DNA of 64,000 nucleotides from Octopus vulgaris (Eukaryota): assembly GCA_951406725.2 (NCBI GenBank), contig OX597814.1, forward strand, positions 27,094,001 to 27,158,000, given 5' to 3'. Numbering within the stretch: position 1 is the first letter of the stretch; every line of letters starts with the position of its first letter. The notes under the pieces were generated by a model. That model searched no databases. It saw only the letters and a program-made list of their open reading frames with translations, and was not told the origin of the DNA. Shown here piece after piece: positions 1-58,429 of this stretch. The position numbers were made by a program, and so were the translations under genes.

Positions 1-266
1 AATATATTTTGCTCTCAAATTATTTTCATTTCAAATGAGAAAATGTTTGTTATCCAGTATATTTTGCACTTAGATTTAACAGCTACCAATGAACTGTTTC
101 ACTGAAAGAAAAAAAAACATACAACAGCAATTATTCGTAATACAAAAGAAATATTATCCAATAATTCCTGCCCCCTCCCTTCTCTGGTTATGCGTAAAAT
201 AACAGGTGATGTCTAGACAAATTCTATAACAAACCAAGTGAAGTTTGTAGTCTTATCTTGCTACAG

Positions 267-380
267 AACCTATCAAACCAAAGGTATATATTGCCGGTGT
301 TGGCTCCAGAACAGTGAATATCTCTTGGATGGCACCGACAAATGATCATATTGGTTACTCCATTGAATATCGAAAACTAG
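267..380 (+). CDS. Internal exon (phase 1-1) of an FN3-containing cell-surface protein; N-terminal half of a fibronectin type III domain
   Basis: Acceptor cttatcttgctacag|267 and donor 380|gtaaaa; 114 nt. Translates (E)PIKPKVYIAGVGSRTVNISWMAPTNDHIGYSIEYRKL(G), with the FN3 'V-x-I-S-W' and 'Y-x-I-E-Y-R' motifs. Joins in frame to 8103. Confidence 0.9.
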
Positions 381-3300
381 GTAAAAATTTCTTCACTCTT
401 CTTTTTCTCACCTATTTTCTATCATTATTTCTTCTAAACACATTTACTCAGAGAAAAACATACAAACATACACAAATATATGATTGTGTCTGTATGTGTG
501 TGTGTGTATATATAAAACATTTAAATGAGAAACAGTTCTACAAAGTGGTATAGTATTGTAATTGCAACAATGCTGCATTTTTATCAGTTTGCTGACAGAT
601 TTCACTTCTCATTATATGTAAAATGTATATATACATATACTGTTTAACAGTTCAAATTTTAATAACATTTACCCAGTGTTCCATTCATTTTCAAATCTTG
701 CTATTATGCCTGGTACACACAGATGGGAAAGAGTGATATACATACAAGAATATAATGGTGTCAACAGTATATCACTTTGAACAAGTTTTAAAAATCAAAA
801 AAGCAGTCAAAACATACATAAAATATTGGACAGTGTTTGTTTAGATTGAAGTGTTCAAAGAAAAAGTAAAATCTGTTAAAATAAATCAACAGTAAACTAT
901 TAAAAATGCAGTTTTCAATACTATATACAAATGTGTGTATGTGTGCGTATACATACACACATACACACCTGTATATATACACACACATATACACATATAT
1001 ACACATATTCACACAAATAAAAAATAAATCAAACAAGCTTCCTCTATCTTCTATTGAATTCCTTTTGTTCTTCCTCGCTCTAGTCTTTCTTATTTTCATT
1101 ACATTTCCCTTTGTCTAACTTCCTTGTCATCTTTATTTTGTTCATCTAACTTCAATTGATACCAATTTAGTTTCGAGTTAAATCTAACATCTTCAGTTAT
1201 TATCAATGATAAATTATTCACAAGTTTGTTTCTCAGTAAAAAAATATATATGTATAACAAATTAAGTATTTCTTTTAAAGGAAATCAATCATCTTTAGTT
1301 TCTTCAATATTTGCAATGTTTAAAACAAAAATTGTTTTCTGCTAGTAACCAGCAAAATAATTATCAAAAAATCTTTCTGAAACAAAATTCTGGAGATAGA
1401 TGCTGAAACAATTTTCTAAAATAATTTACTGAAAATAATTCTCTGAAATAATGTTCTGAAAACATTTTTAACAAAAATTAAGAAAACTTCTAAGAATTTT
1501 CTGTAGAAATACTGAAGACAATAACAAATTCTGAAAATAATTTCATGATGACAATCAGAATATTATTTACTGGGGAAACTTTGAGTGGAAACAAAGTTAA
1601 TGCCTTGTTCTGAATTATTTTAAAGATTTATAAAACCTGAAATTAGTTTCATAAACGTTTTTATTTCAGTCTAAATCTTAGGAATACTGTCAGGTGATTA
1701 TTAGGAATAACTATGGAATTAAGGACACAAGGAAACTAATATTTTCAATTCCTATCACATTTATCAAGAAGTATAAGAAATTATAAAATAGACTAAAAAT
1801 AGCACTGACATGAGAGTGGTACAAGTGAAGGCAGCTGCTAACCAGTTTCCAACTTCACATACATTTTATGCAGAATTCTTCAAATTTTTATTATTTCAGA
1901 CATTTGCAAGCTTTTATTTCTTCAACAAAATCTATTGTATAGAATGCATATTAGTATTAATTTGGCAATGTTGGTAATTTATGTTACTCTACTTGTGTGC
2001 ATAATCACAACAGAGTGATGATTTGACAGCAGCCACATTGCAAGTAATAATGATATTAATAATCAAAATGAGTTCAAATTCAATATACCATAAATTTAAG
2101 AAATATTTATGATAAAATCTAATAATTAAGAAAGATGCTATCCTCATCTTTAAAAAAATTACTTACCAGTTGTAATGGATTGTTTAGGTTTAAGAATTGC
2201 AGCAGGGTAACTTGATACAGCATTAGAAAATTGGTCAAAAGATTTATGGCTTTACATCCCATTGCAAACACTGCATTATGGTAATGTAGAACAAAAGTTC
2301 TTAACTGCTTTATGATTCTAGACTACAAAGGATTTTCCAATATATTTCTGCATCCCCTTTGCCAGGCTGTCAAAATCATCACTATTAGCAATCCTATTAG
2401 GTACCAGTATCATTTCAAAAGCTTAGTTTTATTTTAGATGCCAGTAACAAAGAACAGAACTGAAAACAAAATCATTGGGATTTTGTCATATTTGTAACAA
2501 TACTAGAAGTCAAGTCTCTTGGCCTTGGCCCTTGATTCCTATACTCACTTGCTAAGAACCTCTGATGTAAAAGGACGATGGGCAAGTGGAAATGATATTG
2601 GATTTCTGTTCATGAGCCCTGAGTTCAAATGTACTACTAGCACCTTGTGTTTCTGTTCAAAACATTTAAGTTGCCACTGTTTGAGTTTATTCTGATATTT
2701 GGAATAGGTTTCTGATGTTTGGAATAGATAACAGAACATTAAAGAATGTTCAGTGGTTCTGATTGTAGAGTGTACGTAATTGTTTGTACATAAAAGTTTA
2801 TACTACATTAACCTCAGTGCATGATGAGTTTAATGTGGGACACACTATTAAATAGGTATCATCTTTAGTCACAAGTGATGGCCATTACTTTATTTTTGTA
2901 CAGCAAAAATTTATAACTCTGGTTAGCTCAGTACAGCTTTCTGTAAATAGGTACGAGTTGGTAACTCTAAATGCAGTAAGAATCAAAGGCAATAATAAAT
3001 AAATATTTATTTGTTTATAATGTTCATTTATGGTCCACCTTTGAAACTGGAACAGGCAACAAGAAATGACCCACCCCACCCCAGTATATTTTTCTTAAAT
3101 ACAATGTTAGTTGAGATCAACTTTAATGCATTGGTTGATCCTTATATCTAGTTAAGTGCAGGCTAATATATCAAATAAAGGGAATAAAAAATAATATTTA
3201 ATGAATTAAAATTATGTCTTAGTGAGAAAAAAAATCCTTAACATTAATGACAACTCTTGTCAAGAAAGGAAGGAGAGGACTCTGAAATTTGTATTGATTT

Positions 3301-5038
3301 AAAAACTTAAACGGGTGCATGCAGCAGAGGAATGGGTGTGATTTTTAGCAAGTATGGCAACAAATACAGACATGTTTCAGTCTTATTCAACCACCTCATT
3401 AAAATCTAGTTCAGCTAATACTTACAGACATTAGGAATTTGTTTTAATATAGGGATGTCTTAATATAGGAATATAGATGTTAAATGGTGATGATGATGAT
3501 GACAGTGAGCTAAATAGAATGTTTCATCAAATTGAAATTATGCTCATAATGAGAAGAAAAGCCATTAGCATTAGCAGTAACCCCTATCAAGTAAAGCAAG
3601 TTATACCTTCACTCACAAAGCCATTTTCACCAGCAAGCATGTCTGTTTATATAATTAATTTCTCTGAACTAGAGTTGATAAAACTAGCACCAATTCAATA
3701 CTAGGTACTAATCAAATATATCCGCCCCCTCAAAATGTAAGGCTTTATGCCTATATTAGAAATCAATATTTCAGACTTATTTCTTATCTTAAATTTCAAA
3801 TGCTATCTTTAAAAACAGTAATATACTTGAAGTCAGTTGTACCTCAGAAAATAATATTTTCAAACTCAGAAACCACCTAACTTAATATTATTGCTACTAT
3901 TTTATTTTAATATCTACTATTTTATCGTTACGAACAGACTATTTGACTTCCTAAACATCATAGCTGCTTTTAAACAATATTAAGCAAAAAATATGTAGAT
4001 TAATACAATTTTTAGCAATGAATTGATAAATCTACACTAAACTATAATAATAAAAATAATAATAATAATTATAAGTTTATTGTATATAGTGCTACAACAG
4101 AACATACACCCTGGCCCGGTTTGCTAGGTGTCCTTAGCAATCCCTTCTCAATATAATATAACACAGCTAGAATGCTTGTATCTACATGCATCCATGTTAT
4201 GCTGCTAAATTTTTGCATTCTGCATTATACTGTTACAGTAGCTCCAGTTTTAATTATATTCATTAGAAAAGCCAATTAGTAAGTTCATATTCTTAATTAA
4301 ATAACCTTCATTTAGTTTAGCACCTAGTCCTTCAGTGACTTTAGCAAAGTCTTCTCTATGACAAGCACTTGGGCCTGATTTCCAGTCTGAGGACAATTCC
4401 CTCCCCTTCTTTCCATCCAATTTTTGAATCCTTGTACTGCATTTTTCCATCCGACTAAATTATAAAAGGAATTATCACCATAAAAACAATTCAGCTTGGC
4501 CTACCCGTACATACCTGTTGAAATTATAGGAGACGTTTTCATAAATGATAGGAAAATGATACAAGATGATTATTATATACCTAGGGTAGCCAAGTGGCAT
4601 ATTTTTTTGAAAAGACATAGCACATATTAAATAAGACATATATACTGCTACATGATTTTACTCAAAAATGTACACTGGTTAATCTGTGTTCATTGAAGGA
4701 TTTTATTGAGTTCTTATTTTTCAGTTGTTATTTGGACAAAATTCTAGATGGCAGGATGTTAAAACCATTTTAGGGAAAATAGCACTGAAACACAAGATTA
4801 TTTCAGGAGCTGCACATAATACCTTGGAGAGCCACATGCAATTAATGACATTCCTTTTAATTACTGTTTATAAACCATTATTTAAATAAATGACATTTTC
4901 ACTTTCTACTTGCTTTATGAATTTAGAAAGTCATTTGAATTTAGCCAAGGTATATATTTGTCTATTTATAATAAATAATTTCATAGAAATATTATGTTTT
5001 TACATGCATGTGTGTTTGCCTGTATGTGATTACATATA

Positions 5039-5072
<34 letters not shown>

Positions 5073-5292
5073 CATACACACACACATACACATGCACTTA
5101 TAAACACACATAAATACATCCTCACCTATTTCGATAAGCATATATTTGTCGTCCTGAATAAGTTTTACCTAGCAATATATGCTTTCAGAAAATTTTAGAA
5201 AATGTCGATAATTATGAAGAAACAAGTTTGTTTATAAGAATAAATAAATAAATAAATATCTAAATTTTGTTGCTAACCCTCCCATTTACCCT

Positions 5293-5325
<33 letters not shown>

Positions 5326-5782
5326 ATCTATCTATCTATCTATTCTTACTTTCTTTCCAAACAAGAATTTCTATTCTACACTAACACACTAATTTTCTTG
5401 GTACATTTTATTTCTTTCTTCTTGGTGTTTTATCAATCAATTAATACAGATATTAAAACAAACAAAACTTTTGCAAGTTAAACAAACAAATACTTTTTTT
5501 TTAATTTAAACAATATTTGTATATTTGCTGACTCAAATTCTTCAATGACAAGTCAAATTATGAGTTAATTCCTTAAAACACCACAAGTCTAAGTGTTTTG
5601 TTTTTTTTTTATAAAATCAAATTAAAATAAAAAGCAATATATAAAGAAAATATATGATTTAATTTGTGTTTTTTCCTTTTAAGAATCATTTCCTGAAATT
5701 AAAAGCTATTTAAAAATCATTATGAGGATATTGAACCGAAAAATTAAAGCAAACCACTCACAATATCAAGACAAGTCTAATT

Positions 5783-5818
<36 letters not shown>

Positions 5819-5929
5819 TAATAACCTTTAAGAATGTATAAAATATCTAAATATCTAATTATCAATCTTCATTTTAATTATTCTAATTATAAGAGAAACT
5901 ACAAATAAATATTGTCTGTAATGCATGTA

Positions 5930-5975
<46 letters not shown>

Positions 5976-6730
5976 GGGGGATTAAATAAAAGGAAAATAA
6001 ATAGTATAACTTATTTAGGAATGTTCTGTTGTGTTGGGGAGAGTCTTTTTCTTTTAGTGCCTTATAATTTAACACACTCACCGGTAAAATTTCCACTTAT
6101 TTCTTTTTTATTTTTCTAAAATATTCATTGGGTCTTACAACCTTTTCAATAGGAAATATATTTCATTCTAACTTTCAACGAATCATATATCCTAGGTTCA
6201 AATAGGATATTCAGAACATTGCATAGAAAATAATTCTGAAATTCTTGTCATAATGAAAACAGTATGTCAAATAGTCCTAAAAGAACCGAGCAAAAGTGTC
6301 GGTGACAATTTTCCGCAGGGAAGTAACTCTTATATATATATTTGTAAGATTTGCCTCCCCTGTTTGATTTTTTATTGTCTATATAAAATCTGTTGAGTTC
6401 TACATATTTTCAATTATGCAACTAAACATAATATGAATAAATTATCTGGTTTAAAGCAACTTTTCTATTTATTTAGAAACAAATAAGTTATTCATTTTCC
6501 TTTAATATGTATCAAAGAGTAAATTTCAATTTATTGTTTAAGAAACAATTATCGAGTTTAGTCATCGGAAAAGAGGACAATCAGTAGAAAACAGGGAAGA
6601 AATTTAACATTTCCACAATTATACAGCATATCAGCGGATATCAATGTTCCCCTCTAGAAAACGCGGAGCAATTCAAAAGTATTTGTAAATAAAATATTAT
6701 TTATACTTGAATTAATGTTTATAATTAATA

Positions 6731-6768
<38 letters not shown>

Positions 6769-6888
6769 CATGACGAACGTATGTAAATGAAAGGTAACTT
6801 AAAATATATATAGATACTTTGAGAAGTTTCATATAATTAATTTATTAAACATTGAGAAATATATAAATATAGCGAAACGAGATAAATT

Positions 6889-6919
<31 letters not shown>

Positions 6920-8102
6920 ATTCATATCTTGCCTATCGATAGGGGAGATAACTCTTACAGCAAAACCGAATGTTTTCAAACTATTTTTCCAGATTACCTC
7001 TGAAATTTTTATCAGCAGATAGATTAACTAATATAGAAGCTTGTATTATTTGATATTACAATTGATAATGTGCAAAACATAGAAGAGCTTCGCTCAGGAG
7101 TTTTCGGTGATGGTTTTTTTGGTATTTCATATACTATAAAGAACATTAATCTCATTGCTCATTTTAGTTCAAAGAATGCCTAATAGACAAATCAGTAGTT
7201 TTGTGCAAGCCAAACATTAAATAACTGAAGTAAAATTTAAATCACACAAGATAATCTATTTCATATTCCTTTGAAAATGCAGAAACACTGGAATAACTTG
7301 TATGTATTTGCAACAAGTATACACATATGTATTTATTTATATATACATTAACTTAGGGACTCAACAGTTAGGCAAGCAATGAAACATAATATTAGATTAA
7401 TTGGAAAAATGATTGCAAATGATTTGTAAAACTTGCATCACTAAAGAATTTCAACTTACCACATGAAATGTTTAAAGTGTAATAAATCATAATTTAAACT
7501 TGTTTAAATTAAGACAGTTGCATGAAATTAATTTGTGAAGAAAATAAGCAAATCAGTAACAAACAAATCATTGATAATTTAATGCATTTTCAGTTATTTA
7601 TATTTGAAATTTTTTTTATTTAAAATATGTTCATAAAAATTAAAATACTTTGTAGTACATAAAATCTTCTTGAAATCTATGTTAAACTTTATCAATGTAA
7701 TCTTTGAAAAAATAGATATGTTTTTATCCATACATAAATAAATTTTAAAAAATAAACTATAGAAACACTTTAGCATTAACCAATTAATTACTTTAATTTG
7801 TGATTTAATTATAACTAAAGTAAAAAAAAAAGTTTAAGTTCTTGCATTTTAAAGTTATAATAAAATAAAATAAATAAAATCCAAAGAAAAATTATGAATA
7901 AATTCCAAAACATTCTTGTCAAGTCTGATACTCTTCTTTTCTTCTACTCTTACCATTTTACATCCATCACCACCACTACTAATACTACTACTATTACAAC
8001 CACTTTGCTGCTGCCACCACCACTGCTGGTGCACATCTCTGCTTCTACCACAAACAAACTTTCTGCAAACTTTCTGAATATTCAAACTGTTTTGGGTGGT
8101 AG

Positions 8103-8264
8103 GTGATGAATCGTGGCAAGCTACACGATATCTGTGGAGGAAAAAGTGGAGTCTCTTAGGTTATCTGGAACCAGGGACAAGATATCAAATCCGTGTGGCT
8201 GCTCAGAATAACGTCGGTGATAAAGCATCCAGCAGAGTTTTAGAAGTTCAAACTGCTTTCCAAG
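8103..8264 (+). CDS. Internal exon (phase 1-1); C-terminal half of the same FN3 domain
   Basis: Acceptor ...gggtggtag|8103 (weak pyrimidine tract) and donor 8264|gtaggt; 162 nt with no stops. Translates (G)DESWQATRYLWRKKWSLLGYLEPGTRYQIRVAAQNNVGDKASSRVLEVQTAFQ, with the canonical FN3 'L-x-P-x-T-x-Y-x-I-R-V-x-A-x-N' motif. Missed by the ORF track. Confidence 0.92.
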
Positions 8265-9319
8265 GTAGGTAAAGAGGAGAGGGCATGTTCATGTATGAGG
8301 TTTTTGATAAAACACTCCTCTCCCTGCAACCAAACCCAAGAAAACACATCATCCTGCAATATCTATTATCACCCATTTTGAAATTCCTTTTTATAAACTT
8401 TTTGAAATCTTTATTATTTATTTGTTTATTTATTTGCACTTATCTTAATGGAGTCTTATTTAAAGAATTATTGTGGACCTTGAAATGAATATATGGCTAT
8501 TGTAGCCAATATCACCATCACGTAGCAATATGTTGTCATGGTAAACATCATCACCATTTTCATTAATGTTAACACTCCGATTGTTTATATGACAAATAAT
8601 CTTCACAAACTGCAACTGTGACCATTCTCCTATCACTGCATGTTTGTTCACTAAATGTATAGCATTGGTTTTTTTACCATTTCCTGTCTAAATTTAACAT
8701 TATGTTAAATGTAGACAACATTTCGTGAAGAATGAGTTGTAAATCTTTTTATTTTTTCAGCAGTCATGTATCATAAGACAATATTGTTACACAGGTCAAT
8801 AACGAGGGGGAGGTTACTGTTGTCATTATAATTTTTAAAAAATTTTGTTTATGTAAACCTGAATTTTATTTATTTATTTATTTATCATACTGGAATTATA
8901 TGTCAGAATTCAGGAACTGAAAGGATCATAATATTCTGCTGACCAAGAATCAAAATAAAACTTCTTCAAAACAATTATAATTTACTTCCTCTTGTTATTG
9001 TATTTCTGTTTTCATAGCTACATGATTTTTTAATATATTTCTGAATGTCTAACTGTTAGTATAACTTATTTTGATGCAAGATTATTACAATTTAGTAAAA
9101 CTTCACTACAGCATCATTATGTAGTTGATTCATATGTATGTCACGTGAATAATATCTTCATCATACTCTGGTAAAAAAAAAACTCTGTTGTAACTCTAAA
9201 AGTCAAATTAAACCAGGGGAGAATTAGCAGGGATTATTACCAGGAATGTGACATGAACTGCTCAAATGACTTTGTCTTTTGTGATATAATTATGTAGCTA
9301 ACACATTTGCTTCTCAAAT

Positions 9320-9430
9320 ACATACTTTTTGGTCACACTTTGACCAAGTGTCTTCTACCATAACCCCAGGCTCATTAATATCTTGTGAGTGGAATTTGGA
9401 AGATTGGAATTGTATGGAAACCTAGCAGAG
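9320..9430 (+). mobile_element. Degenerate SINE fragment (family with 'caagtgtcttctac...ttgtgagtggaatttgg' body)
   Basis: The same body occurs in reverse orientation at ~56165-56285, next to a tRNA-like head. Confidence 0.55.
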
Positions 9431-9519
9431 GGGCCACATCTGCTCTTGTGTAGTACATTAAATCTATCAACCAATTTTATATAAACATCTGGCCCTCAGG
9501 TATCTTTAGTGAATGCAAG

Positions 9520-10125
9520 TATTTGGACCAAGTATCCGAAAGAAATGTTTTGCACAATTTGTTTCGGCCATTTTTACATTTCTGATTTCAAATCCCACTA
9601 AGGCCAATCCTTTAGGGATTGATGAAATAAACTACCAGTACTACACTCAATTCGATAGACTACTTCTTTCACCACCAATTTTTGTGGCCCATTATTTTTA
9701 TCATTGGAAGTGTCATAAAAAGTGTTTTGAAGTACTTGCTCAATCTCTTTACATTTTGTGCTCAATTTCCACTAAGGTCAACAGTGCTTTCATCGTCCCA
9801 AGGTCAATAAAATAAAGTACCAGTTGCATACAAAAGTCAATTAAATCAATTAACCATTCCCCCATGTCTCAGGTTCTGAACCTATAACAGAAACAACTAT
9901 TATTATTATTATTACAACCATGGATTGGCAGAATCATTAGAATTATCAGATGGAATGCCATGCTGCATTAGTTCTGGTATTTTACATTCTGAGTTCAAAT
10001 CCTAACATGGTCATCTTTGCCTTTCATTCTCGTCAAAATGCTAGTCAAGAACAGAGGAAGTTCAATTTAATCAAGTAATTTATCCTCACAGAGGTACTGG
10101 TTTTGTGCCTAAAGTAGAAACAATT
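9520..10125 (+). mobile_element. Three tandem degenerate copies of a tRNA-derived SINE
   Basis: The motif 'tttacatt-tg-g-tcaaat-cc...ggtc...gcctttcat...ataaaataagtaccagt' repeats at ~9570, ~9750 and ~9980 and matches the better copy at 44445-44652. Confidence 0.65.
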
Positions 10126-10769
10126 ATCATTATATATATATATTTGCAAGGCCAAAAATTTGTTGGTGTTAACTATTTGACTAGAATGTTAGGACCAAAC
10201 AAAATATGAAGAGGCTTACTTATCAGTAGTCTGGTAATTCTAAAATCCATTAACATGTCAACTAATAATAATGATTATTATTACTCAATATTATTGTATT
10301 TTGCTTTATAGTATTTTCTTTAGAAGATATTCATGACTATATATATATATATATATATATTCTGATTATACTTAACAAATATATTCCAGGAAATCTAGTT
10401 AAATGAACAGATATTTAATTATTTGATTGAATCAAATTGAAATTTTTATACACAGAAGGAAATATGAGGGAAGAAAGGATGGGGTTTATGTGATATCATA
10501 CGAAAATTTTTGCTGTAATTGTATAAATTTCACCTATCAATGATTTCTGTCAACAACTCCAGTAATTCCATGAAAAATGAACACAGACCACAGACATAAA
10601 TTCATTGTATGCACAAACAAAGAATATTGAATTTACACCTGTATGCACAAGCATGAAATACACTTCCTTGTATACTTCCTGTACTCAATATGCAGAAAAC
10701 TTTCCAAAAAATAAAATAGCCAAAAATTAGAGGTAATTAATTACAAATTCAATTCATAGAATGTACTTA

Positions 10770-10811
10770 TTCCTCTCTCTCTCTATCTCTCTCTATCTCT
10801 ATCTATCTATT

Positions 10812-10904
<93 letters not shown>

Positions 10905-10925
10905 AGCTAGCTATCTACCTATCTT
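10770..10925. repeat. (CT)n/(CTAT)n compound microsatellite
   Basis: Directly visible. Confidence 0.95.
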
Positions 10926-11056
10926 TGTTGCACACTTATGAGGAAGTTTAAGTATGGTGCTTACATACTGGATCTTTTCAATAATAACCAATAAGCCAAT
11001 TCTAGATCCATCCACTAACATATGTCAATATGAATATGTGTGAGTGTATGTGTGTG

Positions 11057-11103
<47 letters not shown>

Positions 11104-12171
11104 GAGATCCTGTGATGAAAATGAATATTGTTGAAACTCAGTACAATGATTGTAAACAAATTATAAGTTGCACATATTTATCTTATTCCATTTTTTTTTC
11201 TTTTTCTGATACCAAAGTACTAAAATATTCAAATATGCATCAACAACCAGACTTTTTATTCCACTCAGGAAATATTTTGACAATTAAAGAATGTTGCAAA
11301 GAATTTTGCTGATGCTTTCAAACCATTTAACTATTATTTGTACAAAACCTTTTACCTTTAAACTTAATAAATATTTATTTGTCCAATGTAGTGTAATAAA
11401 GTGATAACTGATATAAATTTGAAACATTTGATTAATGTCATAAATATTTAATTCATAACCTTCAGTGCCATTCTATCAGGAAATGATCAAACCAAAAGTG
11501 TTCTATTTATTCAGTTCAAATTAGTCTGTTTGCATTTTATGCAAATTTATAACTTTTCTCTAACAAATCTAAGAATATATATTATAATTAATATTATAAC
11601 TAATGAGAAAAAAAAACAGCTTTGCAGATGCGTAACCATCACATCTGTATGTAACATTATCTTAACTACTAATACAGGAAATAATTAAACCTTATTAAAT
11701 ATCAACCAATCTTCCTCTTAAGTCTTACGCCTTATTAGACAGAATTTTTTCTTCTAATCAAGCCTTGTAATGACAGCACCATTTCTTCATCAGTCATTCA
11801 CATCTTTTTGATACATTACTTTATATTCCTTTTGTTAATAGGTGTGTTCCCCAATCAATTCATCCAGCAACTCACATGATTTGTTTAAGGGAACTCATCT
11901 ATTACATGATTAAACTATTTCAATATATCACCCACCATATTTAATGAATATTGTATTGTTAAGGTCTTTTTATGAACAGTATCAAAAATGTACAATGATT
12001 TATCCTATTTTATCACTAAATCATTGTCTTAATAGAGTGAACTACCCTACGTTCTATCTGCTATATTAAAACTGCATGTTTTTCAAGCCACGATGAACTT
12101 CATGTTCTCCCATTGCGCTGCATGATGCTTAATACAAATTGCTTGCTCTTTATGTTTATTATCTCTTTTAG

Positions 12172-12198
12172 ATTCAGCTTTTCTTTCTCTAGAACAAG
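12172..12198 (+). CDS. Candidate 27-nt microexon (phase 1-1) encoding (D)SAFLSLEQ; a nested acceptor would give a 6-nt exon at 12193-12198
   Basis: Acceptor tttattatctcttttag|12172 and perfect donor CAAG|gtaagt at 12199. Frame-preserving between exons 8103-8264 and 19174-. Confidence 0.6.
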
Positions 12199-12295
12199 GT
12201 AAGTAAAGAAAGAGAATCATGTAAAAATAATTTCATTCTGGGCACAAAAAGAAAACAATGTCTCTCAAAATACATGAAATTTTACATGAAAAGTA

Positions 12296-12332
<37 letters not shown>

Positions 12333-13145
12333 AAGTTGCTACATAAAATTTCATCTTGATCATTTGGTGATTGGCATTAAGATATTTGAAGCTTGCATAT
12401 ATACATGCCACTTGATTTTCTTTCAGCAACACTAAAAACAACTTGACACAAATTCTAGCTCCTCACATAAACATATGACAAAGTTTAAAAAATTCTAATG
12501 AAAGCACGCATGGTAAACTTATAAATGTGAAAACTAATGATTAGTGACAAAAAATGTTTCGCAGGGATTCTTTGTATGTAGGAGGATTTTTAATGGAAAA
12601 AAAGGAAATTTCACTAAAGTGATTTTACTTCTGGGTATAGTTAAGAAATAAGAATATAAATAAATAAATAAATCTGTAATTGTACATATATATAAATTTG
12701 GCATTTATATATTTAGCTAAATTGGTTTTATGACTACAGAATATGTAGTTTGGCTTGCAGTGGATGATTTTTTTTTAATATGTAGAGAAATTTGGAGGTC
12801 AAATATAAATTAACTCATGGTTTATATTATGTGTGCACATATGCTATGCATGATGTCACACATGTATTCGCATGCACATACATGAACTCACACAAATGCA
12901 CATGCAAATGAGTGTGCATTCATGCACAGGCAAACATGTCTGTGTATACTCAGATATTTACATACACTTCCTTGTGCTATGTTCCCACTTTCAATATACA
13001 CATGTAGGTATGCACATATTCATATATGTACATGCACACACAGACACACACACATGCATACATGCATGCACATACATGCATACTCACACACACATACACA
13101 CATACACATGAATATACATCCATGCATTAACAACAGGTATACAAA

Positions 13146-13365
13146 TATTGGTTTCAAATTTTGGAACAAGGCCAATAATTTTAGGGGAGGAAGTAAGTCA
13201 ATTACATCAACCCCAGAGCTCAACTGGCACTTATTTTACCAACCCCTAAATGGACGAAAGGCAAGGTCAACTGTGACAGCATTTGAACCCAAAACAAAAT
13301 CGGAAGAAATACCACAAAGCATTTTTCCTGCCACACTGACAATCCTCCCAGCTCGATGCCTTATA
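13146..13365 (-). mobile_element. Near full-length tRNA-derived SINE, reverse orientation
   Basis: The reverse complement aligns end to end with the copy at 44445-44652 (gggttcaaat...ttgcctttc...aaaataagt-ccagttgagc-ctgggg...aatttgaaaccaat). Confidence 0.8.
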
Positions 13366-14053
13366 AACGTACAAATATAAAAAGCTTGAATGTTAAAATT
13401 GCATAAAACTAATTGAGTGCTAATTCACTTTTACAAAATAAGTTACAAAATTTTTTTAAAGCGCTAAAGAAATAACTTAATTATCTGGAAACTGATTAAA
13501 ACATTTTAACTTATATAAATTAGGCAAGCGCCATAAATGCATATATATGCATGTACTACATGTATAAGATCTGTATAATACATGTATTCTATGGTTGTAT
13601 GCTCACATTATCAATAAATGAAATTATATGAACAGAGAAATATGGGAACACAAGGCAATTTAAAAAGAACAAAATGCATATATGGATGCATACATCTATG
13701 CATCTGTGTCATGCACACATGAGCCTATTTACATTTATGCTAATGTTCTTATGCACTCATACACATCTGTGCACATACATACAAACATATATGTGTGTGT
13801 GTACTAACAGATGCACACATATTTGCATATATGTGTGTTTAATATGCAATACACTCATGTAGCTATTAGAATGCTTATAGATACATACAAATGCATGTGT
13901 GAATATATTCAACTGTAATTCATCCTTAGTTCACATAAAAATATATGCCAGTTAATATGAGCATTACACACACACACACACACACCTACATATATAGATA
14001 TAAATGCAACTATCCATACATAATGTAAATAACTAAATGAGTCTATCTATCTA

Positions 14054-14092
<39 letters not shown>

Positions 14093-14096
<4 letters not shown>

Positions 14097-16178
14097 TCAT
14101 TTAAAGTCCGTTTTCCATGCTGGCATGGGTTGGACGGTTTGACTGGGGACTGGCAAGCCAGGAGGCTGCATGAGGCTCCAATCTGATCAGGCAGTGTTTC
14201 TACAGCTGGATGCCCTTCATAATGCCAACCACCCTAAGAGTGTAGTGGGTGCTTTTTATGTGCCACCGGTATGGGAGCCAGTCAGACAGCACTGGCATCA
14301 GCCATGTTTGGATGGTGCTTTTTATGTGCTAATGGCACAGAAGCCAGTCAGGCAGCACTGGCAACAAACTATGCATGAATGGTGCTAATTGCATGCCACC
14401 AGCACGGGAGCCAGTGAGGTGGCATTGGCACTAGCCACAACTACAATTTCTATTTTTGGTTTCTATTTGATTGAGATTCTAATTGTGATTTTGATTTTGA
14501 GTTTTGATTTTACTTGACTCAATAGGTCTCCTCAAGCATAGCATGTTGCCTGACAGTTCAAAGATACTTTTTAAATGGACTGGTTATGCGACACTGGTAT
14601 AGGCTATGGCTGCGGTCGCACTTTACTTGCCGGGTCTTCTCAATCACAGCATATCTCCAGAGCTCTTGGTCTCTTGTCATTGCCTCTGTGAGGCCCAGCA
14701 TTTGAAGTTCGTGCTTCACCACCTCATCCCATGTTTTCCTGGGTCTCCTTCTTCCATGGATTCCTTCCACTGTTAGGGAGTGACACTTCTTCACACAGCT
14801 CTCCTCATCAATACGCAGCACATGACCATACCAGTGCAGTTGTCTCTCTTGCACATCACATCTGATGCTTCTTAAGTCCAACGTTTCTTTCAGGTTGCTT
14901 GTATTCTGTTGTGTGTGCACAGTGACATACTAGCTTCATTTCTTTCAATGTATGTCCTCAACAATCATGGCCTATGTTTCACTGCCGTGTAGCATGGCAG
15001 TACACACACATGCATCATAAAGTCTACCTTTCACTCTGAGTGAGAGGCCATTTGTCACCAGTAGATGTAGGAGGTTTCTGAACTTTGCCCAGGCTATTCT
15101 TATTCTTGTGGCAATGCTCTCCAAGCATCCACCCACCACTACAGACTTGGTCACCTAGGTAGCAGAAGCTATCAACTACTTCTAGTTGCTCCCACTGGCA
15201 TGTGATGGAATCTGTTTTCTGTGCATCTTCAGTGTTTATTGCCCCTATGCATCTGCCTTACACAAAGGAAGGTTAACCTTCCTTTGATGTTGCTGCACCA
15301 CTCATGTGTCCACAGCTTACACTGGGTACATCTTATGGAGTTTCTACCTACACCTTTTCTACAGATTGAGCATTGCCCACTAGATAAGGGATTGGGGGAC
15401 CCTGTCAAAGGTTTTCTCCAAGTCAACAAAAGCCAAATATAGGGGTTTATCTTTGGCTAGGTATTTTTCCTGCAGTTGCCTTACCAGATATATAGCATCA
15501 GTGATGCTTCTACCTGACACCAAACCAAACTGCATCTCATCTAAGCAGACTCTCTCCCTAATTAGTTGGATTATGAACCTCTCCGTGACTTTCATCAACT
15601 AATCCAGCAGTTTGATATCCTGTAGTTATTTATCTAAAGCATCACCTTACATTTGTAGCAGTTGACTATTGTGCTGCTACACCAGTCATTGGGCATGACT
15701 CCTTCTTGAAACACCTGATTTACAATACGGGTGACAAGACCATAACCCACACCACCAGGTATTTTATGCATCTTAGCAGTGATTCCTGATGGGATGGGGG
15801 CTTTTCCTGACTTCATATCCTTAATTGCTTTATCTACCAGGGTGCAATCGATTTGGGTAGCCTATCCCTTGACTGGGTCAACATTTGGCAAGCTCTCCTC
15901 CTCCCATTCATTCTCCACATTCGCAGCCTTTCATAATGGCATTAAAAGCAAGTGCACCATTATCCATACAGATACATTTCTCTCTTGTAACATCAATTTT
16001 CTCTCACATACTGTCTTGAAATCCGAAATACTTCAGTTCTTTGGTCCTCACATCACTGAACATTGGCAAACTTCTTCTTCTTTTCTGCTTCTCCCTTGGC
16101 TATATATACCTGACTCCCAGCCTCGCTTCTAGCAATCTGGTACAGTTCCCTGCTGCCCCAACTCTTCCAGGTTTCCCA
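14093..16178 (-). mobile_element. 5'-truncated, decayed RTE-clade LINE (RT pseudogene, 3' UTR and (GAT)n tail)
   Basis: Frameshifted minus-strand fragments: MKSGKAP..SGITA, QFGLVSGRSITDAIYLVRQLQEKY...AFVDLEKTFDRVP, RIRIAWAKFR...MLHGSET, RQLHWYGHVLR...GRRRPRKTW. The 3' end ccgtccaacccatgc-agcatggaaa-cggac-ttaaatgatgat is shared with the copies at 57.6 and 63.6 kb. Confidence 0.93.
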
Positions 16179-17234
16179 CATATATAGATAGATAGATAGA
16201 TAATACATAAATACATATATGTATGCTCATACATAAGTGAACATAAATAAATATATATAAGCACTAAAACTAAACATATAGATGCATGTATTCACACACA
16301 AGTACACATTACATGTGCATATCCAAGCGAAAAAAATTATCAAAAAATTTGCAATTAAATAGAAACCTATACTTTTTCCCTTTTATCCTTGTTCAAAAAC
16401 ACATATATCTGTGATGTAAACATTTAAATGAATGTATCAATCCCACCCACATTATCTCTCTCTTTTTTCATTTATATATATATATATATCATATATATAT
16501 ATCATATATATATATATATATATGAATTTGGGTACATATGTACAAATGCAATTTTGAGTATCATCATATATATATATATATGTATGTATGTAAATAAAAA
16601 TGCATGTGTGCACGTGCACATGTGTGTGTGTGTATCACACTACTCGCACAATATGCACACACATAATATATTCTGTGAATTGATCTATATATGACCTGAC
16701 CCATGTCCCACCAACTTACAAAAAAGAACTGATTTAAAGCCATTGAATTCCATTATAAAACACAATATTCTAGAAACTCCCACCCTATCCCAGTCCACAT
16801 ATCAGGTAGTAATATAGATTTTAGCTAAATAAATAAATAACAAACTAAGATACATGCACAATTACAAATTTATTTATTTGTTTATTTATTTATACCTTCA
16901 ATCCTTAACTACACCCACATGTGAAACTTCTTTACTGAATATTCCAATTTCTTGCATTAAAAATCTTCCTACATACAAAGAATTCTAACAAAAAAATCTT
17001 TCTTGTGACTAATCACTAATTTTCCCATATTTGAGCATTCATAAATGCACCACAGGGATCTTCATAAGGATTTTCTATAGAAACTATTTTATAAAGAAAC
17101 ACTGAATCTGAAGAATTTTTGCATGTAAATGTATCTAATTCTTTTAAATTATGTATAGGTAGGAATTTTTTTTTTTTATCAGTACTGAAAGAAAACCAGG
17201 AGATGTGCTTATAAGCAAGCTTCAAGACACACAT

Positions 17235-17264
17235 ACATATATATATGCATACATATGTATGTGC

Positions 17265-17329
<65 letters not shown>

Positions 17330-17751
17330 TATACCTGTATACATATGTAATATATACATATATTTACAGACACACACACACACATATATATACATATACA
17401 CATACATATATATATTATGTATATATGTGTGTATTTGTGTGTTAATCCACATATTAGTATTAATTGACAGATTCTAAATGATTTATGATTATTTTCAATA
17501 TATATATATATATAATATGTACACATATATTTGCAAACAACAATTTGAGATTAAAAACAACAATTATCCAATTTACAGGAAGTGATTCATGTATCTCTTA
17601 CTTATCAGAAAAATTTACCTCTATGGGTTGGTTGATTCCTGTCAATTGGTTCTTGTTCTTCTTCAGTCTCAAATGTTTAAATTGAAATTTCAACTTTCAT
17701 TAATAATTCATGTGTGTATGTAAATGTATGTATATGCATGTATGTGTATAG

Positions 17752-17840
<89 letters not shown>

Positions 17841-17885
17841 AAAAAATATATACACACACACACACACACACATTATATGTGTGTA
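17235..17885. repeat. Two compound (TA)n/(CA)n microsatellite tracts (17235-17440, 17710-17885)
   Basis: Directly visible; source of spurious IY/HT ORFs. Confidence 0.95.
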
Positions 17886-19173
17886 AGTATCGTTTTCTGT
17901 TATAATCAAGCACTGTTTACAAAAATTCATATTTAAGCCATGTATTATTTAATGAAAATCATTAGTTTCTTAAGAAATTAATTACTTTATTGTTAAAAAT
18001 ATTATTTTTCAGATTATTTTAGAAAATTAGAAGAGGTTCTTCATTAACAAATAATTACATAGGTCTCTATATATATGTGTGTGTGTTTGTTTGTGTGTGT
18101 GTGTTTATATACATATATATGTATATATAATAGTATATACAGATGAGACTATGTGCTCAACACTGCATTTGTTGTTGGCCATATGAAATTGTAAATGAGG
18201 TTAAGAATTAGAACATAAGTCTAGGGCTTTTATGTTTAACTTCTTGCTAGTTTTAATGTGTGAGACAAACTTGAGTTACAGAGAGAGACAGTCAGAGTTT
18301 CAAATGTTTCAGAAGTAGAGTCAAATCCATATGGCAGGTCATGCACATCATCAGATAAAGCTCACTTTACTGCAACCATCACTTCCAAACCAACATTTTT
18401 TCTGAAGTCGTTGAAGCTGGGCATCAGCCACCTTAATTTTAATGGTCTAAGAGGATCAGCAAAAGTCATAAGCACTACTCCTTCCCCACCAATTCATACA
18501 TGGATAAACATGATCTGCTCTTTAATCTATTGAGTTGCAGAACAACAACTTGAAGAATTTGTCTTCATTTGGCTATACATCCAGAACAAGTCAATAAGAC
18601 AGGACCCAATGTGTTCTAAAGTAATTGCAAGTTGAGAGTTAAATCTGCAAATTAATGAAATACTCATCAATTAAACAGTACTTTTACTTACTATAGGAAA
18701 CTATAACATTTGTGATACCTATTTGCCATTAGGTAGATTAGGATAGATATTGGTTGTGAGAAACGAAGTGTGGATCTTAGGGGTAAAAGTTTATCAACCT
18801 GTTTTTCAGCATATATATATTATGGATTAGTTATAAGGTGGAAGACAGTGCCCATCAACTTCTGCATGGCTTCTGAAATTGATGCAAGGACAGGACTGGA
18901 AACCTGGTGGATCTGCTGTAGTCAAAGTCACTCAAGGATCATGTGATGGTGATGAACCAGGCACCAGGTTAAGTCAACCAGCTAAGTGAAAATAAAAATA
19001 AAATATAAAATTAGTTGTAGAAGTATTTTTATCTCAACGTTTAACTACTAGTTTAGACATATTTAAGTTACAAGATACAAAAGAACTACATAGAATAATA
19101 GCATGGCATAGTTATACAAATGTATGATGACTATCTTCGTTGAAGAAATTTATCTTCTCTATTTCCCTTTCAG

Positions 19174-19319
19174 TTAATGGAACTCAGTATCAAACCTCAA
19201 ATGGTATGCCAAGATCGAATCCCAGCTCCGCCATCAGGACAGGCCTGAAGTCATACATTCTTATAATCCTGACTCAGTTATTCACCATTTTTGCAATGGT
19301 GTTTCAAGTCTTCCAATAA
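19174..19319 (+). CDS. Terminal coding exon with GPI-anchor-like C-terminal signal
   Basis: Strong acceptor tatcttctctatttccctttcag|19174. The phase-1 join gives (V)NGTQYQTSNGMPRSNPSSAIRTGLKSYILIILTQLFTIFAMVFQVFQ* (TAA 19317-19319): small residues S-S-A, a polar spacer, then a terminal hydrophobic stretch with no cytoplasmic tail. Confidence 0.8.
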
Positions 19320-20974
19320 AAGAAAATGAAAAAAGGGAAAAGCTCATAACAATGCTACATCTCAGTGATCAGTGAACAAGGTACGAAAAAACGGCGACAA
19401 TTTTTTTCTTTTACAGAAATGGACGACGACATAAATTATTTCGTACCACTATTCTTTTGACATTCATTACTAATAATGAACATGAAAAAAAAAATTACCC
19501 AGAAAAATTCATTTTAATCAAATGGAAATCTACACTTTTTTTTTCTCTTTATCCTTGTCCAGTAACAGATGCAATGAATATAAAAATTATATAAATAAAC
19601 TTCTCAATAAATACCAACTCCAAGTAACAATATATGCAGTCAACAACCAACCAATCAACTAAGTAACATATTGAAAACTGAAAGTAAAGTATCCAATCAA
19701 ATCAAAACTAAGCTAACTGTATAAATACAATAATGGCTACTGTTGACAATGTCAAATTAAATATTATTATAACCTCTTGTTTCAATCTGAAATGCATATT
19801 TACACTAACAAACATACACATACATACACATGCATGCTCACACACATATATGCACACATTTTTTTAATGTGTGTAAATTTTTTTGAAACTTTTTGTGTTT
19901 TTTTTCTCTTCTTTGCCTTCTTTTACTGTCTCACTGCAAATCAGTTATGGAAAATAAAGTGAAGAAAATTAGTGGGTAAAAGAAAAAATTACCCACCCAG
20001 CCACCACCACCACTCCCCTTCTCCCCTACTGGCTGTAGTGACAGAACTTCGTAGGCATTCTCCCCTTCCCCCATTCCTTCCTCACCTTTTCATCTCAATT
20101 CTATCCCAAACTTTGGTTATGAACAATTCATTTCTGTATCTAAAATCTCTCTTATCTTCCCTCTTTTCCTAACTTACCATCACTTTCCTTCCTCTATTTT
20201 TCTAACTTTTTCCCTCTCCCTTGATCTGTATTATTTTTCATCATTTTTTCTTTCTTCCTTTCTCATTCTCTCATCACCCCTCCCCCTCTCTTTCTCATAT
20301 TTAATTTTATTATTGGCTGTGCAACGAAAGCTTCTGATTGGTTCAAAAATAAATAACATACAGACACATCATCATCATCAACAACTACAATAATAATAGC
20401 AAGAACACCTCCTGACATAACCCTCAGCATGTGGGATATTTTCATCATTTTTTTTAAACAAGCATTACAAGCAGTAAATGAAAGAAAAATTTCAAAGATG
20501 TGTGTGATGCAATCATATTTCAGAAAAAAAGAAAAATCAAAATGTGAATGACAATGGCAGTGTTAGTATGTATGAAATAAGAGCCCCAACGCCCTAAAAC
20601 ATAGGTTGTAAGAATAGAATTTCATTGAAAAATTATCTTTTTAATCCTATTCTATCAAAAATGCTGAATGTTTGTTTTGTCTGGTCTAATTTTTATGTTC
20701 TTCTCATCACCAGTTAACTCTTTTGAGTAGAATAAATGTAATTATTCCTTCCCCAACCACCACCACCACATGAATCATATGTGGCAGACATTGATCAATT
20801 GATCATTTTGGCTGGGCATCAGCCACATCTTTCTCAATGGTCTGGGAGAGTATACTTATTTCATAGGTGCTGCCTCTATATAACAAAATTTTTAAACTTA
20901 CATGAATACAATATTTCAGTGGTGTTCAACAGCATCACAGCACTCTCTACCACAATCACTACCAACAGATACAA

Positions 20975-21300
20975 TGCTTAACCTGCTAGAAATAGCGGCT
21001 AAATCTCCCTCACTGTCTTAAAAAGGGAAGGACACACATTAAATAATGTAGTCATAGATCCTCCCACTTCCAAAAAAAAAAGACGGGATGGTCATGGCTA
21101 GAATGCCTTTGATCATAGACGTGTTCAGTCAAGACTGACATAAAATTAAGTAACATTAGCAAGGGTGCTTCTATATAATCACTCAACCTGCAAGAAACAA
21201 CAGTCAAATCTCCCTCAAATTACACCCCCACCCACCGTCTTCAAAAACAGGGAAAGGACACATTAAATAATGTAGTCCTAGACACCCTTAAAAAGGCAGG
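20975..21300 (+). repeat. Two adjacent diverged copies of an unclassified interspersed repeat
   Basis: 'aacctgc-agaaa-a-c-g--aaatctccctc...gtctt-aaaa..ggacaca..ttaaataatgtagtc' occurs at ~20980 and ~21185. A reverse-complement copy lies at ~47310-47355 (gagggagatttggctgctattt...caggtc). Confidence 0.65.
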
Positions 21301-21304
21301 ATTC

Positions 21305-21455
21305 TTTTTATTCTTTTAGTGGTTTCAGTCACTAGACTGTGGCCATGCTGGGGCACCACCTTCAAGTGTTTCAGTTGATCATATCAACCCCCAGTACTTA
21401 ATTCTAGTATTGTACTTATTTTATTGTCTCTATTTGTCAAATCGCTAAGTTATGG
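21305..21455 (-). mobile_element. SINE 3' portion, reverse orientation
   Basis: Contains 'gactgtggccatgctggggcacc...atcaacccccagtactta...tacttattttattg', the reverse complement of the SINE core; a related stub lies at 53010-53048. Confidence 0.55.
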
Positions 21456-21774
21456 TATGGATGGTCAATGTATTTCGTGCATATGTACATGTCATATATA
21501 TATATATATATATATTAATATATATATATATGTGTATGTATATATATACACAAAATATGGGGGTTTAGTTCACAGGTGATCTAAACGATTAGGTACACTA
21601 GGTAAGTGCTGTAATAGATTACTAAGGTTCCAAGGTTGTAGCTGAGATGGTAGTTATAGAGCCATTGCAGATTTCCAATATAGTGGATATATAATTATTA
21701 AAGACAACAACAAACGTTAAGGCAAGGCAAACATCTCAAGTCATATACGTTATTATTATTGGAAAAAATTCAAA

Positions 21775-21830
21775 GTCTTATAGCTGTTTCTGGGATATCC
21801 AAGAGTATAGGATATTCCATCATCAGAGAC
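21775..21830 (-). ncRNA. Minimal type I hammerhead ribozyme motif (Penelope type)
   Basis: Minus strand reads GTCT-CTGATGA-TGGAATATCC(tatactctt)GGATATCCCA-GAAA-CAGCTA-TA-AGAC: stem I GTCT/AGAC, intact CUGAUGA and GAAA boxes, a stem II hairpin, and a palindromic stem III with one substitution (CAGCTG>CAGCTA). Confidence 0.75.
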
Positions 21831-21841
21831 AAATAGGGAAA

Positions 21842-21893
21842 GTGATGACAGAATATCCCATACTCTGGGATATCCGAGAAACAGCTGTAAGAC
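21842..21893 (+). ncRNA. Second hammerhead motif, 5'-clipped at the first core C
   Basis: Plus strand reads gTGATGA-CAGAATATCCCA(tactc)TGGGATATCCGA-GAAA-CAGCTG-TA-AGAC: intact palindromic stem III and GUA cleavage triplet, but C3 and the 5' strand of stem I are lost. Confidence 0.65.
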
Positions 21894-22913
21894 TGAATTT
21901 TTTCCAATAACAATAATGTATATGGCTTGAGACATTTGCCTTGTCTTAATGTTTGTTGTCCTCTTTAATAATTATATATATATGACATATATATATGTAT
22001 AACATATATGTATATATGCTTGAGTTTGTATATGTGTGTGTGTGTGTGTGTGTGTATGTGGGTGGGTGTGTCTGTGAGTGTGTATTTAATTGTATGTACC
22101 ATAAGCAATCCATACATCAGAAACAATGTGTTCAAATTATATCATAATTTGTATACAAATAATGCAGTAATGCAGAAAACTGGATATGTATAGAATGGGA
22201 ACTAAGAATTAGGGAAATAGGGAAATGAGCACCAGTGTAATAGTGAGTCAAGAATATGTCCTTCTTAAAAGTGAGGTGAATCAAAAATATTATTTTAGAT
22301 TACATACTTTAATAATAAATGTTACAATCAATCTTAAATAAATTTTTTTTAAAAAGACATTTTGAAAGAAAGAATGAAAGAAAAACAGAATGGAAGAAAG
22401 AAGTAAACAAGGTGAGAAAATATCTAAAATCAATATATGCAAACTTACACTAGAGACAAACTAATATTTTTTTTTCTAAGAATTTTGTGTCTATATGTAT
22501 GCATATGTGTGTATATGTTGGTTTGTGCATTTGTGTGTATGTACAAGCACATACACACAGATGCAGAAACCAACATAAGCATTTTTGTGTTTGTGTGTTT
22601 AACAGTGTAATACAATTTGGACAAGTGTTTATATGTGAAAACAGAATACTGAAAATGATTTTAAAAAAAGGCTACCTCAATCAAAATCAAAACTTTCCTA
22701 CAGAAACAAAGAAATATTGCAGAGGAATAAAAGAAAAGGGGGTTCAAATAATAATAATAAAAACAATGCAAAGAATACACATGGATGACGAATTAATCAA
22801 TAAACAAAAGGAAAGCAATGAAATATGATAAATATGTGTGCATGTGTGTTTATATATATATATATATTATACATATATACACACAACACATATACACACA
22901 CATGTTCACATAC

Positions 22914-49442: not shown

Positions 49443-50782
49443 CAAAAGTGTGACTGCGCATACGCGAAAGTGTGCGTGCGCATGCGCGAACGTTTGCGTG
49501 CGCATGCGCAAATGTGTTAATGCGCGAAAGTGTTCGTGCGCATGCGCGAACGTTTGAATGCGCATGCGCGAACGTTTGCGTGCGCGTGCGCGAAAGTGTG
49601 ACATGCGCGATACTGCGCGAAAGTGTTACTGCGCGTGCGCGAACGTTTGAATGCATGCAGGCGCGAAAGTGTGATTGCGCATGCGCGAAAGTGCACTAAC
49701 ACTTTCGCGCACTGCGCATTAACACTTTGCGCGCACTTTGCGCATTCAAACGTTCGCCATGCGCAAACACACTTTCGCGCATTGCGCATGTGCATGGCTT
49801 AACACTTTCGCGCATGCGCATTAACACTTTCGCGCATGCGCATTCAAACGTTCGCGCCTGCGCAGTCACACTTTCGCGCATGCGCATTAACACTTTCGCG
49901 CATGCGCAATCACACTTTCGCGCATGCGCATTCAAACGTTCGCGCACGCGCAGTAACACTTTCGCGCATGCGCAGTCACACTTTCGCGCACGCGCATTCA
50001 AACGTTCGCGCATGCTCATGAACATCTTCGCGCATGCGCATTAACACTTTCGCTCATGTGCAGTCACACTTTCGCGCATGCGCGGTCACACGTTCGCGCA
50101 TGGGCAGTCACACTTTCGCGCATGCGCAGTCACACTTTCGCGCATGCGCGGTCACACTTTCGCGCATGCGCAAACACACTTTCGCGCATGCGCATTCAAA
50201 CGTTCGCGCATGCGCATGTGCACTAACACTTTCGCGCATGCGCATTAACACTTTCGCGCATGCGCATTCAAACGTTCGCGCATGCGCAGTCACACTTTCG
50301 CGCATGCGCAGTCACACGTTCGCGCATGCGCAAACACCCTTTCGATCATGCGCAGTCACACTTTCGCGCATGCGCATTCAACACGTTCGCGCATGCGCAT
50401 GAACACTTTCGCGCATGCTCATTAACACTTTCGCGCATGCGCAATCACACTTTCGCGCACGCGCATTCAAACGTTCGTGCATGCGCATGAACACTTTCGC
50501 GCATGCGCACTAACACTTTCGCGCATGCGCATTAACACTTTCGCGCATGCGCATTCAAACGTTTGCGCATGCGCATGAACACTTTCGCGCATGCGCATTC
50601 ACACTTTCGAGCATGCGCAGTCACACTTTCGCGCTTGCGCATTAACACTTTCGCGCATGCGCATTAACACTTTCGCGCATGCGCAATCACACTTTCGCGC
50701 ATGCGCAATCACACTTTCGCGCATGCGCATTCAAACGTTCGCGCACGCGCAGTAACACTTTCGCGCATGCGCAGTCACACGT
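49443..50782. repeat. CpG-rich 22-bp minisatellite, about 60 units, core TTCGCGCATGCGCA; first ~250 bp inverted relative to the rest
   Basis: Unit variants are gtcacactttcgcgcatgcgca, ttaacactttcgcgcatgcgca and ttcaaacgttcgcgcatgcgca. 49443-49694 reads as the reverse complement (tgcgcatgcgcgaaagtgtgac); the switch is at ~49695. Confidence 0.97.
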
Positions 50783-50785
50783 TTC

Positions 50786-57636: not shown

Positions 57637-58429
57637 TATATATATATATATATACAGTGGTGCCTTCGGGCTAAAACATTTTTAAGGATACATGTATATA
57701 TACATACACACACACACATATACACAACTTTATACATATTGCGCATATCATAAACCCCTTATTAGTTCTTTTCATTATTTTATCTATTTCACTACCATGT
57801 AAACATAGTTTCAATAGTTTTGTCTCCCACGTAGTTGTCTTAAGTTGATGCATCTCCGGTAATCGTTACATATTTATTTATTCAAGTTTATCACATCGTA
57901 ACTCATCTCCAAATTTGTCACAGATAGGCTGACCGAAAATTCTAAGATTTTTCAATTCTATTTCACTATTATCGGCATTTGCTGTTTCATTAAATTATGT
58001 TACCCAAAATCCCAAAGAATATTTTTCTCCCTCGTGTTCTATGACCACCCTAATTCTGCGCCCCCCCCCCCCTTTCTCTCTCTTTCGATTTACCACTTGA
58101 TTCGCCAACACTTCCCCCCTCTTTCACCACCACCACCCTATATAAACTAGCGCATGCACTCAGATTCCCCCTACTCGATTTTTAATAACTCCCCCAAAAG
58201 AATACAAATCCAGAAGATGCTCTTGTCTAAATTTGCTAGCTCCCGGTATGCCTGACCTCCCACCCCCTCCACATGTACTGGAAGTTCCTATCCTCTGCCT
58301 ACCTTTAGTTGTCTCCAATGAACACTTCTAAAGGCTTAATGCCATCCCCACTCCTACCTAGGGTTTATCAGTCATATAGTGCATAAAAATGATGGTGTAG
58401 TGTATGCATGTTGTTTATGAATTCTGCTA

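Follow-up and report, generated by a model that had tools for sequence, protein, structure and literature searches.

A truncated head-to-head pLTR insertion of a decayed Penelope-like retrotransposon, with hammerhead motifs on both strands, in Octopus vulgaris

Two hammerhead ribozyme motifs lie on opposite strands of a long hairpin in the genome of Octopus vulgaris, and the locus raises the question of how such a structure arose and whether it cleaves, moves as a unit or serves a neighbouring gene. The DNA analysed here, called the window, is a stretch of 64,000 nucleotides (contig OX597814.1, positions 27,094,001 to 27,158,000), and coordinates are counted from its first letter. A sequence-only reading of the window had offered two origins, an ORF-less, MITE-like derivative made of two inverted ribozyme-bearing repeats or a one-off inverted insertion.

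Results

The hairpin is part of an asymmetric, one-tailed insertion

The two inverted arms of about 135 bp proposed in that reading are real and form a hairpin where claimed. Segments 21687-21772 and 21894-21979 (86 nt) are 90% complementary, a second pair of segments, 21774-21825 and 21843-21894 (52 nt), is 88% complementary, and the 293-nt stretch folds with -177 kcal/mol (z = -25.6), a stability equalled by 0 of 200 shuffles. On the folding model, any transcript at the locus is predicted to form one long hairpin. The extent first given, 21687..21978, holds for the hairpin and fails for the insertion boundary, as the minus-strand arm runs about 140 nt beyond 21687, to about 21546, an extension common to other copies. 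Compared with a family profile of the arm ends built from 14 natural copies, the window arms match positions 880-1183 on the minus strand and 900-1039 on the plus strand. The insertion is asymmetric, with a long arm that carries a tail and a short arm that does not, and comprises the following features:

21546..21979, no strand: whole insertion, a head-to-head inverted pLTR-end pair, one tailed (profile match of both arms)
21546..21686, minus: tail, about 140 nt, on one arm only
21687..21845, minus: pLTR part of the long arm; its 5' end is profile position 880
21775..21830, minus: minimal type I hammerhead (sequence, motif pattern, local fold, family majority)
21843..21845, no strand: junction, 3-nt TGA common to both arms (alignment overlap 3)
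21843..21893, plus: truncated hammerhead (UGAUGA, stem II, GAAA, intact ACAGCUGU palindrome, GUA site, AGAC)
21843..21979, plus: short arm without tail, ending at the proximal TATA site, profile position 1039
21494..21548, no strand: left flank, (TA)n-rich, likely the target
21970..22020, no strand: right flank, TA-rich; a target-site duplication cannot be told

Both outer ends of the insertion blur into (TA)n, and the TA-rich flanks claimed earlier were found on either side. Read on the plus (host) strand, the tail contains AGGTAAGT at 21600-21607, which we take to be a splice-donor-like site.

Both hammerhead motifs of the locus are predicted to be inactive

The minus-strand motif displays CTGATGA..GAAAC at 21826-21786 and the GTCT/AGAC strands of stem I; its helix III reads ACAGCTAT where the family has ACAGCTGT, the change at 21781 (G to A at position 16.2) giving a 15.2-16.2 mismatch. 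Its predicted cut site falls between 21779 and 21778. The plus-strand motif consists of TGATGA from 21843, GAAA at 21878-21881, ACAGCTGT, A17 at 21889 and AGAC at 21890-21893. It begins at U4, without C3 and the 5' strand of stem I, because the junction at which the short arm starts cuts through the motif. The earlier inventory of the two copies is borne out by the sequence, both for the minus strand (core boxes and stem I kept, stem III substituted) and for the plus strand (stem III and GUA site kept, C3 and the 5' strand of stem I lost), and the pattern and family evidence supports the reading of the family motif as a minimal type I hammerhead. The hammerhead search suggested at the time gave a divided answer: the exact motif pattern has 358 matches in the genome against 0 for the reversed control, and an Rfam search of the locus returned no hammerhead match even at E <= 10, so that the call rests on the pattern and the family evidence.

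Stem II has a probability of 0.0 in the whole hairpin, as compared to 0.55-0.77 (plus strand) and 0.90-1.0 (minus strand) when folded alone, and the hairpin is predicted to sequester both motifs. The dimeric cleavage envisaged earlier is impossible in cis for inverted copies, since either strand has a single sense motif, which is paired to its antisense. Both ribozyme motifs of the locus are damaged and predicted to be inactive, with no cleavage expected, and the hammerhead was inherited from the parent element.

The parent is a Penelope-like element, likely of the Hydra clade

The parent element was sought by walking upstream from other genomic copies of the arm. In long copies, decayed ORFs were reached about 0.9 kb before the hammerhead, with remnants of an N-terminal RMRWK, of DKTGN and RT motifs, of an insert rich in asparagine and threonine, of a CNC-x5-C linker and of an end that resembles GIY-YIG and has CxxC + CxH; RT/EN remnants lie upstream of the arm in L120, L152, L155 and others. 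Among 21 copies, RT4-like and YxDD motifs were each found in 7, the linker in at least 7, CxxC..E in 7, CxH in 11 and DKTGN in 3; RMRWK occurs in L155 and L161, few copies extending this far 5'. The insert lies in frame between the RT thumb and the linker in L120:2214-3614 and L154:5690-6481. Pfam matches did not reach the cut-off, with E 6e-4 for GIY-YIG and, on a relative, E 9e-4 for RVT_1; most RT pieces were missed by Pfam, and word-seeded protein searches gave no match. An intact 806-aa database protein aligns colinearly with the N-terminal, RT and EN pieces. Atlas look-alikes carried HTH_animal in 26% and 93% of members and RVT_1 in 19%. Divergence of the copies from the family majority amounts to about 8%. 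The genome yielded no intact source element, and the window copy itself is devoid of an ORF.

In L155 and L161 the tail leads on into the ORF and stops some 50 nt short of the putative start codon, and the arm is therefore a pLTR; in these long copies the tail probably forms the 5' UTR leader. The pLTR arrangement is direct in L155 and inverted in 25 of the 55 loci of the census described below. Judged by these remnants, the parent is a Penelope-like retrotransposon coding for RT with a GIY-YIG EN at the C-terminus. The Penelope-like origin and inverted terminal repeats claimed earlier were right, RT/GIY-YIG remnants being joined to the same arm, and the window copy is a truncated head-to-head inverted pLTR stub of this decayed element.

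When matched to the definition in the text of PMC8557442, the motifs make membership of the Hydra clade likely: RWK, DKT, a CxCX5C linker, CxxC + CxH in the EN, a hammerhead and (TA)n targets are common to both, whereas the element is about 3.9-4.3 kb long and the clade 'generally <3 kb'. The Neptune clade was rejected, as only low-complexity spurious CX2-5CxxC matches were found and DKT stands instead of DKG. An asparagine/threonine-rich insert between RT and EN is also described in rotifer Penelopes (Adineta Pen2a). At L131:5253-6653, a related PLE ORF occurs as nearly identical head-to-head inverted pieces with the same linker type, which suggests a younger family.

The two-arm layout recurs with a different junction each time

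The genome (2.8 Gb) was searched for two-arm copies; 40 of 2172 candidates were scored and 15 two-arm loci besides the window were fetched. The recurrence that the sequence-only reading had asked about was thus found for the layout and not for the junction, all 15 others being different. For a census, the 55 rows with the family's stem II among the first 100 listed of the 358 motif matches (contigs C1-C4) were kept, and 45 with another stem II were left out. An inverted partner within 4.5 kb was present at 25 of these 55 loci, which disposes of a one-off inverted insertion. Pairs span 209-4300 bp, the longest enclosing ORF remnants, and L152, L154 and L120 show the same inverted layout across 3.9-4.3 kb. 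Junction overlap varies, the alignment estimates ranging from gaps to overlaps, and TA/AT makes up at least half of the sequence in 23 of 50 flanks versus 6.2% of 1000 background windows. With unique junctions, spans of 0.2-4.3 kb and TA-rich flanks, the structure is therefore likely remade at each insertion.

These data bear on the proposal that fixed two-arm ribozyme elements form a MITE-like, non-autonomous family and move as a unit. ORF-less two-arm copies of 0.38-0.45 kb are indeed common, but the similar size of the two-arm matches follows from the query, the best of them (among the 40 of 2172 candidates scored) are 77-87% identical, and all junctions examined differ. Furthermore, the arms are unequal, the tail lies outside the inverted repeat, and sizes are continuous up to 4.3 kb, where the layout encloses ORF remnants. 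Such a family is extremely unlikely. A non-LTR retrozyme was also rejected, given the head-to-head layout and the single arm pair in the window; the retrozymes described in bioRxiv 10.64898/2026.07.22.740005 are likewise non-coding, pLTR-derived and equipped with a type I hammerhead, but are head-to-tail tandem units with intact hammerheads, whereas the copies here are head to head and are not amplified as a unit.

Almost every classifiable pair carries one tail

The 3' ends of the arms are bimodal, at profile positions ~1038 and ~1183, about 145 nt apart and both TATA-like at the end. In the census, 22 of 22 classifiable pairs combine one tailed and one tailless arm (p = 5e-7 at even odds), three more having an eroded end. 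The same rule was followed by 20 of 20 classifiable pairs in a second set of 27 loci from other searches, the window included (7 eroded). In a third set of 21 new loci, six have partners, of which two follow the rule, three are eroded and one is an exception. With the three sets combined, exactly one arm is tailed in 44 of 45 classifiable pairs. In the exception, L230, both arms are tailless, and the long arm ends without a TATA motif or TA flank.

One way to produce the inverted arm is self-priming (fold-back) on one template of the same element, as proposed for rotifer Penelopes in PMC3846280. The arms of one insertion do share variants, 2.41 per pair versus 0.96 for different insertions (39 pairs, one skipped), a value reached in 0 of 2000 permutations and indicative of one shared source; gene conversion or subfamily structure could account for it as well. 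The two arms in the window have only 1 variant in common over 132 columns. Fold-back would likewise fit the short overlaps at many junctions, 3 nt in the window copy, whose tailed arm is longer at the 5' end as this mechanism requires. However, if a tailed cDNA folded back, the start of the tailed arm would have to lie 5' of its partner's, and in 15 of 22 census pairs it lies 3' of it; in five of these 15 the arm is tail-only and has no sequence in common with its partner. We therefore favour two separately primed cDNAs, and consider fold-back unlikely.

The tail-only arms (L166, L170, L172, L181 and L216) stop within profile positions 1094-1126, a narrow zone that is possibly a pause or a protein footprint, and 0 of 25 partner arms start between positions 960 and 1090. 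Two other explanations of the arm starts were not supported. A transcript-start pile-up was suggested by 7 of 29 starts at profile 638-660, several at CCATTCT, but was seen in 0 of 21 new loci, for which the query was placed further 3' and ends accumulated at its edge instead. The ribozyme cut site (~946) was not clearly enriched for junctions, only 2 of 25 partner arms starting at 945-954.

A second family (L039, L041, L055, L058), which shares the hammerhead only, has a tail of 132-140 nt with TATA-ending bounds in 4 of 12 loci. The likeness between the tails of the two families is weak, 9-187 of 300 shuffles reaching the score, and their folding gives z from -0.2 to -2.1.

The insertion lies downstream of a host gene

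The hairpin was rightly placed downstream of a stop codon: the inferred stop of a plus-strand gene is at 19317-19319, 2.2 kb before the insertion. This multi-exon gene occupies 251-19319, with an fn3 exon near 251 (Pfam E 0.004) and a hydrophobic C-terminus, and its product is perhaps membrane-anchored. The window further contains a 22-bp tandem repeat rich in GCGCATGCGC at 49445-50785, in two opposite-orientation blocks of 11 and 44 copies, and decayed LINE pieces at 58393-59388, 60409-60913 and 14558-14929, the first two with weak endonuclease matches. A SINE neighbouring the element presumably resembles octopus SINEs.

This position leaves room for co-option in the host 3' UTR, either as a ribozyme switch or as a dsRNA element that acts on editing or stability. 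Of the words of 19150-22300, a fraction of 0.69-0.80 occurs in small contig sets guessed to be RNA, and in three guessed-RNA runs 21567-21699 is covered by short pieces that show 0-1 differences, so that the host transcript might conceivably reach the element. Yet no run is recorded as RNA, the contigs are strandless, the junction together with both arms is not spanned by any piece, and upstream of the insertion there are several poly(A) signals. Editing is not a clear explanation of the A>G differences, one of which is also present in the large run X15, and the window arms differ at 15 of 132 columns, near the family mean of 12.4%, which gives no sign of selection for pairing. Co-option is therefore very unlikely, and the copy is better viewed as a dead pLTR insertion.

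The hammerhead is conserved in the family

Sequence comparison shows that the parent lineages conserved the hammerhead. Between the family profile and the second family, the match is confined to the motif, positions 893-957, at 12 of 12 loci; the core match itself is a product of selection by the search pattern, and these loci mostly keep the stem I strand, which the pattern did not require. The two families have an identical stem I, GTCT/AGAC, and the pairing of stem II is kept, without clear double changes. In 57 of 60 unselected copies an A precedes GAAA, and the facing base is mostly C or T, the family motif lacking the G10.1-C11.1 pair next to the core; in PMC3088659, hits without this pair were rejected unless activity had been measured. 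The motif resembles the minimal hammerheads of metazoan PLEs (PMC4209133) in its 4-bp helix I, long helix II and palindromic helix III, and differs from them in the missing G10.1-C11.1 pair (C or U opposite A), the 8-nt palindrome and the large share of CCGAUGA cores.

A large lineage of the family carries this CCGAUGA (U4C) core, and U4C is reported to lower hammerhead activity in vitro (PMC3088659). Among 172 cores, 107 read CTG, 52 CCG (CCGAUGA, about 30%) and 13 CCA. The idea that CUGAUGA is a mere CpG decay product of CCGAUGA was rejected, since these counts need both ancestral states; the 13 CCA cores are such a product. At least three other hammerhead families, with G-C by the core or a different helix III, were seen (L192:4729, L198:3470, L204:1085, L064:1862), one other hammerhead-bearing family in L204 being present on both strands. 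Hammerhead pairs on opposite strands, 100-700 bp apart, have been reported in Schistosoma (PMC4209133).

Discussion

We regard it as highly probable that the window holds a dead, truncated head-to-head pLTR insertion, likely of a Hydra-clade element and likely made in one event from two primed cDNAs. According to this model, which is reconstructed from the sequences of dead copies as regards priming, the element's enzyme would cut the (TA)n target on both strands and two cDNAs would be primed on the element RNA, at two fixed sites separated by about 140 nt; TATA at both start sites may help priming by pairing with the target. Both cDNAs would then stop early and join head to head through a few bases of microhomology.

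A comparable activity has been described for Poseidon PAc of Anolis (PMC11167929), a PLE protein that in vitro cleaves both strands, extends them and initiates at two internal sites bounding a tail. The targets are AT-rich in both cases, and the PAc ribozyme is not needed for insertion. PAc belongs to another clade, and its start sites lie inside the ORF and are not homologous to the cut DNA, whereas both sites end in TATA here.

A more far-reaching version, which we hold to be doubtful, would make two-primer integration obligate: a dimer would cut both (TA)n strands and always use both TATA-ended sites, one per target end, with a spacing of about 140 nt in two unrelated families of Hydra type. 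If true, the 8-nt palindrome would serve mainly to bring two element RNAs together by pairing, which would provide every active site with a template, and this role would explain the good spread of a lineage with the weakened CCGAUGA core.

Published work already covers the inverted one-tailed architecture, pairs of hammerheads on opposite strands and the targeting of (TA)n. EN+ Penelope-like insertions (PMC8557442, PMC3846280) likewise show a head-to-head inverted copy, 5' truncation, a tail at one end and AT-rich targets. The tails described there are 30-40 nt, a length typical and not diagnostic, whereas the tail here measures about 140-145 nt and seems to fall within the 5' UTR, and a target-site duplication cannot be told. 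In a search to which subscription papers and Repbase were outside, no paper was found on the family, its ~140-nt tails or the one-tail counts; the supplements of PMC8557442 may list this family. Less ordinary in the family are a tail roughly four times as long as described, the TATA with which both start sites end, and the CCGAUGA cores.

PMC8557442 and PMC11167929 leave open how PLEs form inverted insertions tailed on one side and what the hammerhead does. Any mechanism must explain the near-strict presence of one tail per pair, the tail-only arms, the TATA starts, the 140-nt spacing and the non-canonical core, and these family-level numbers can be put directly to the test in the in vitro system already available.
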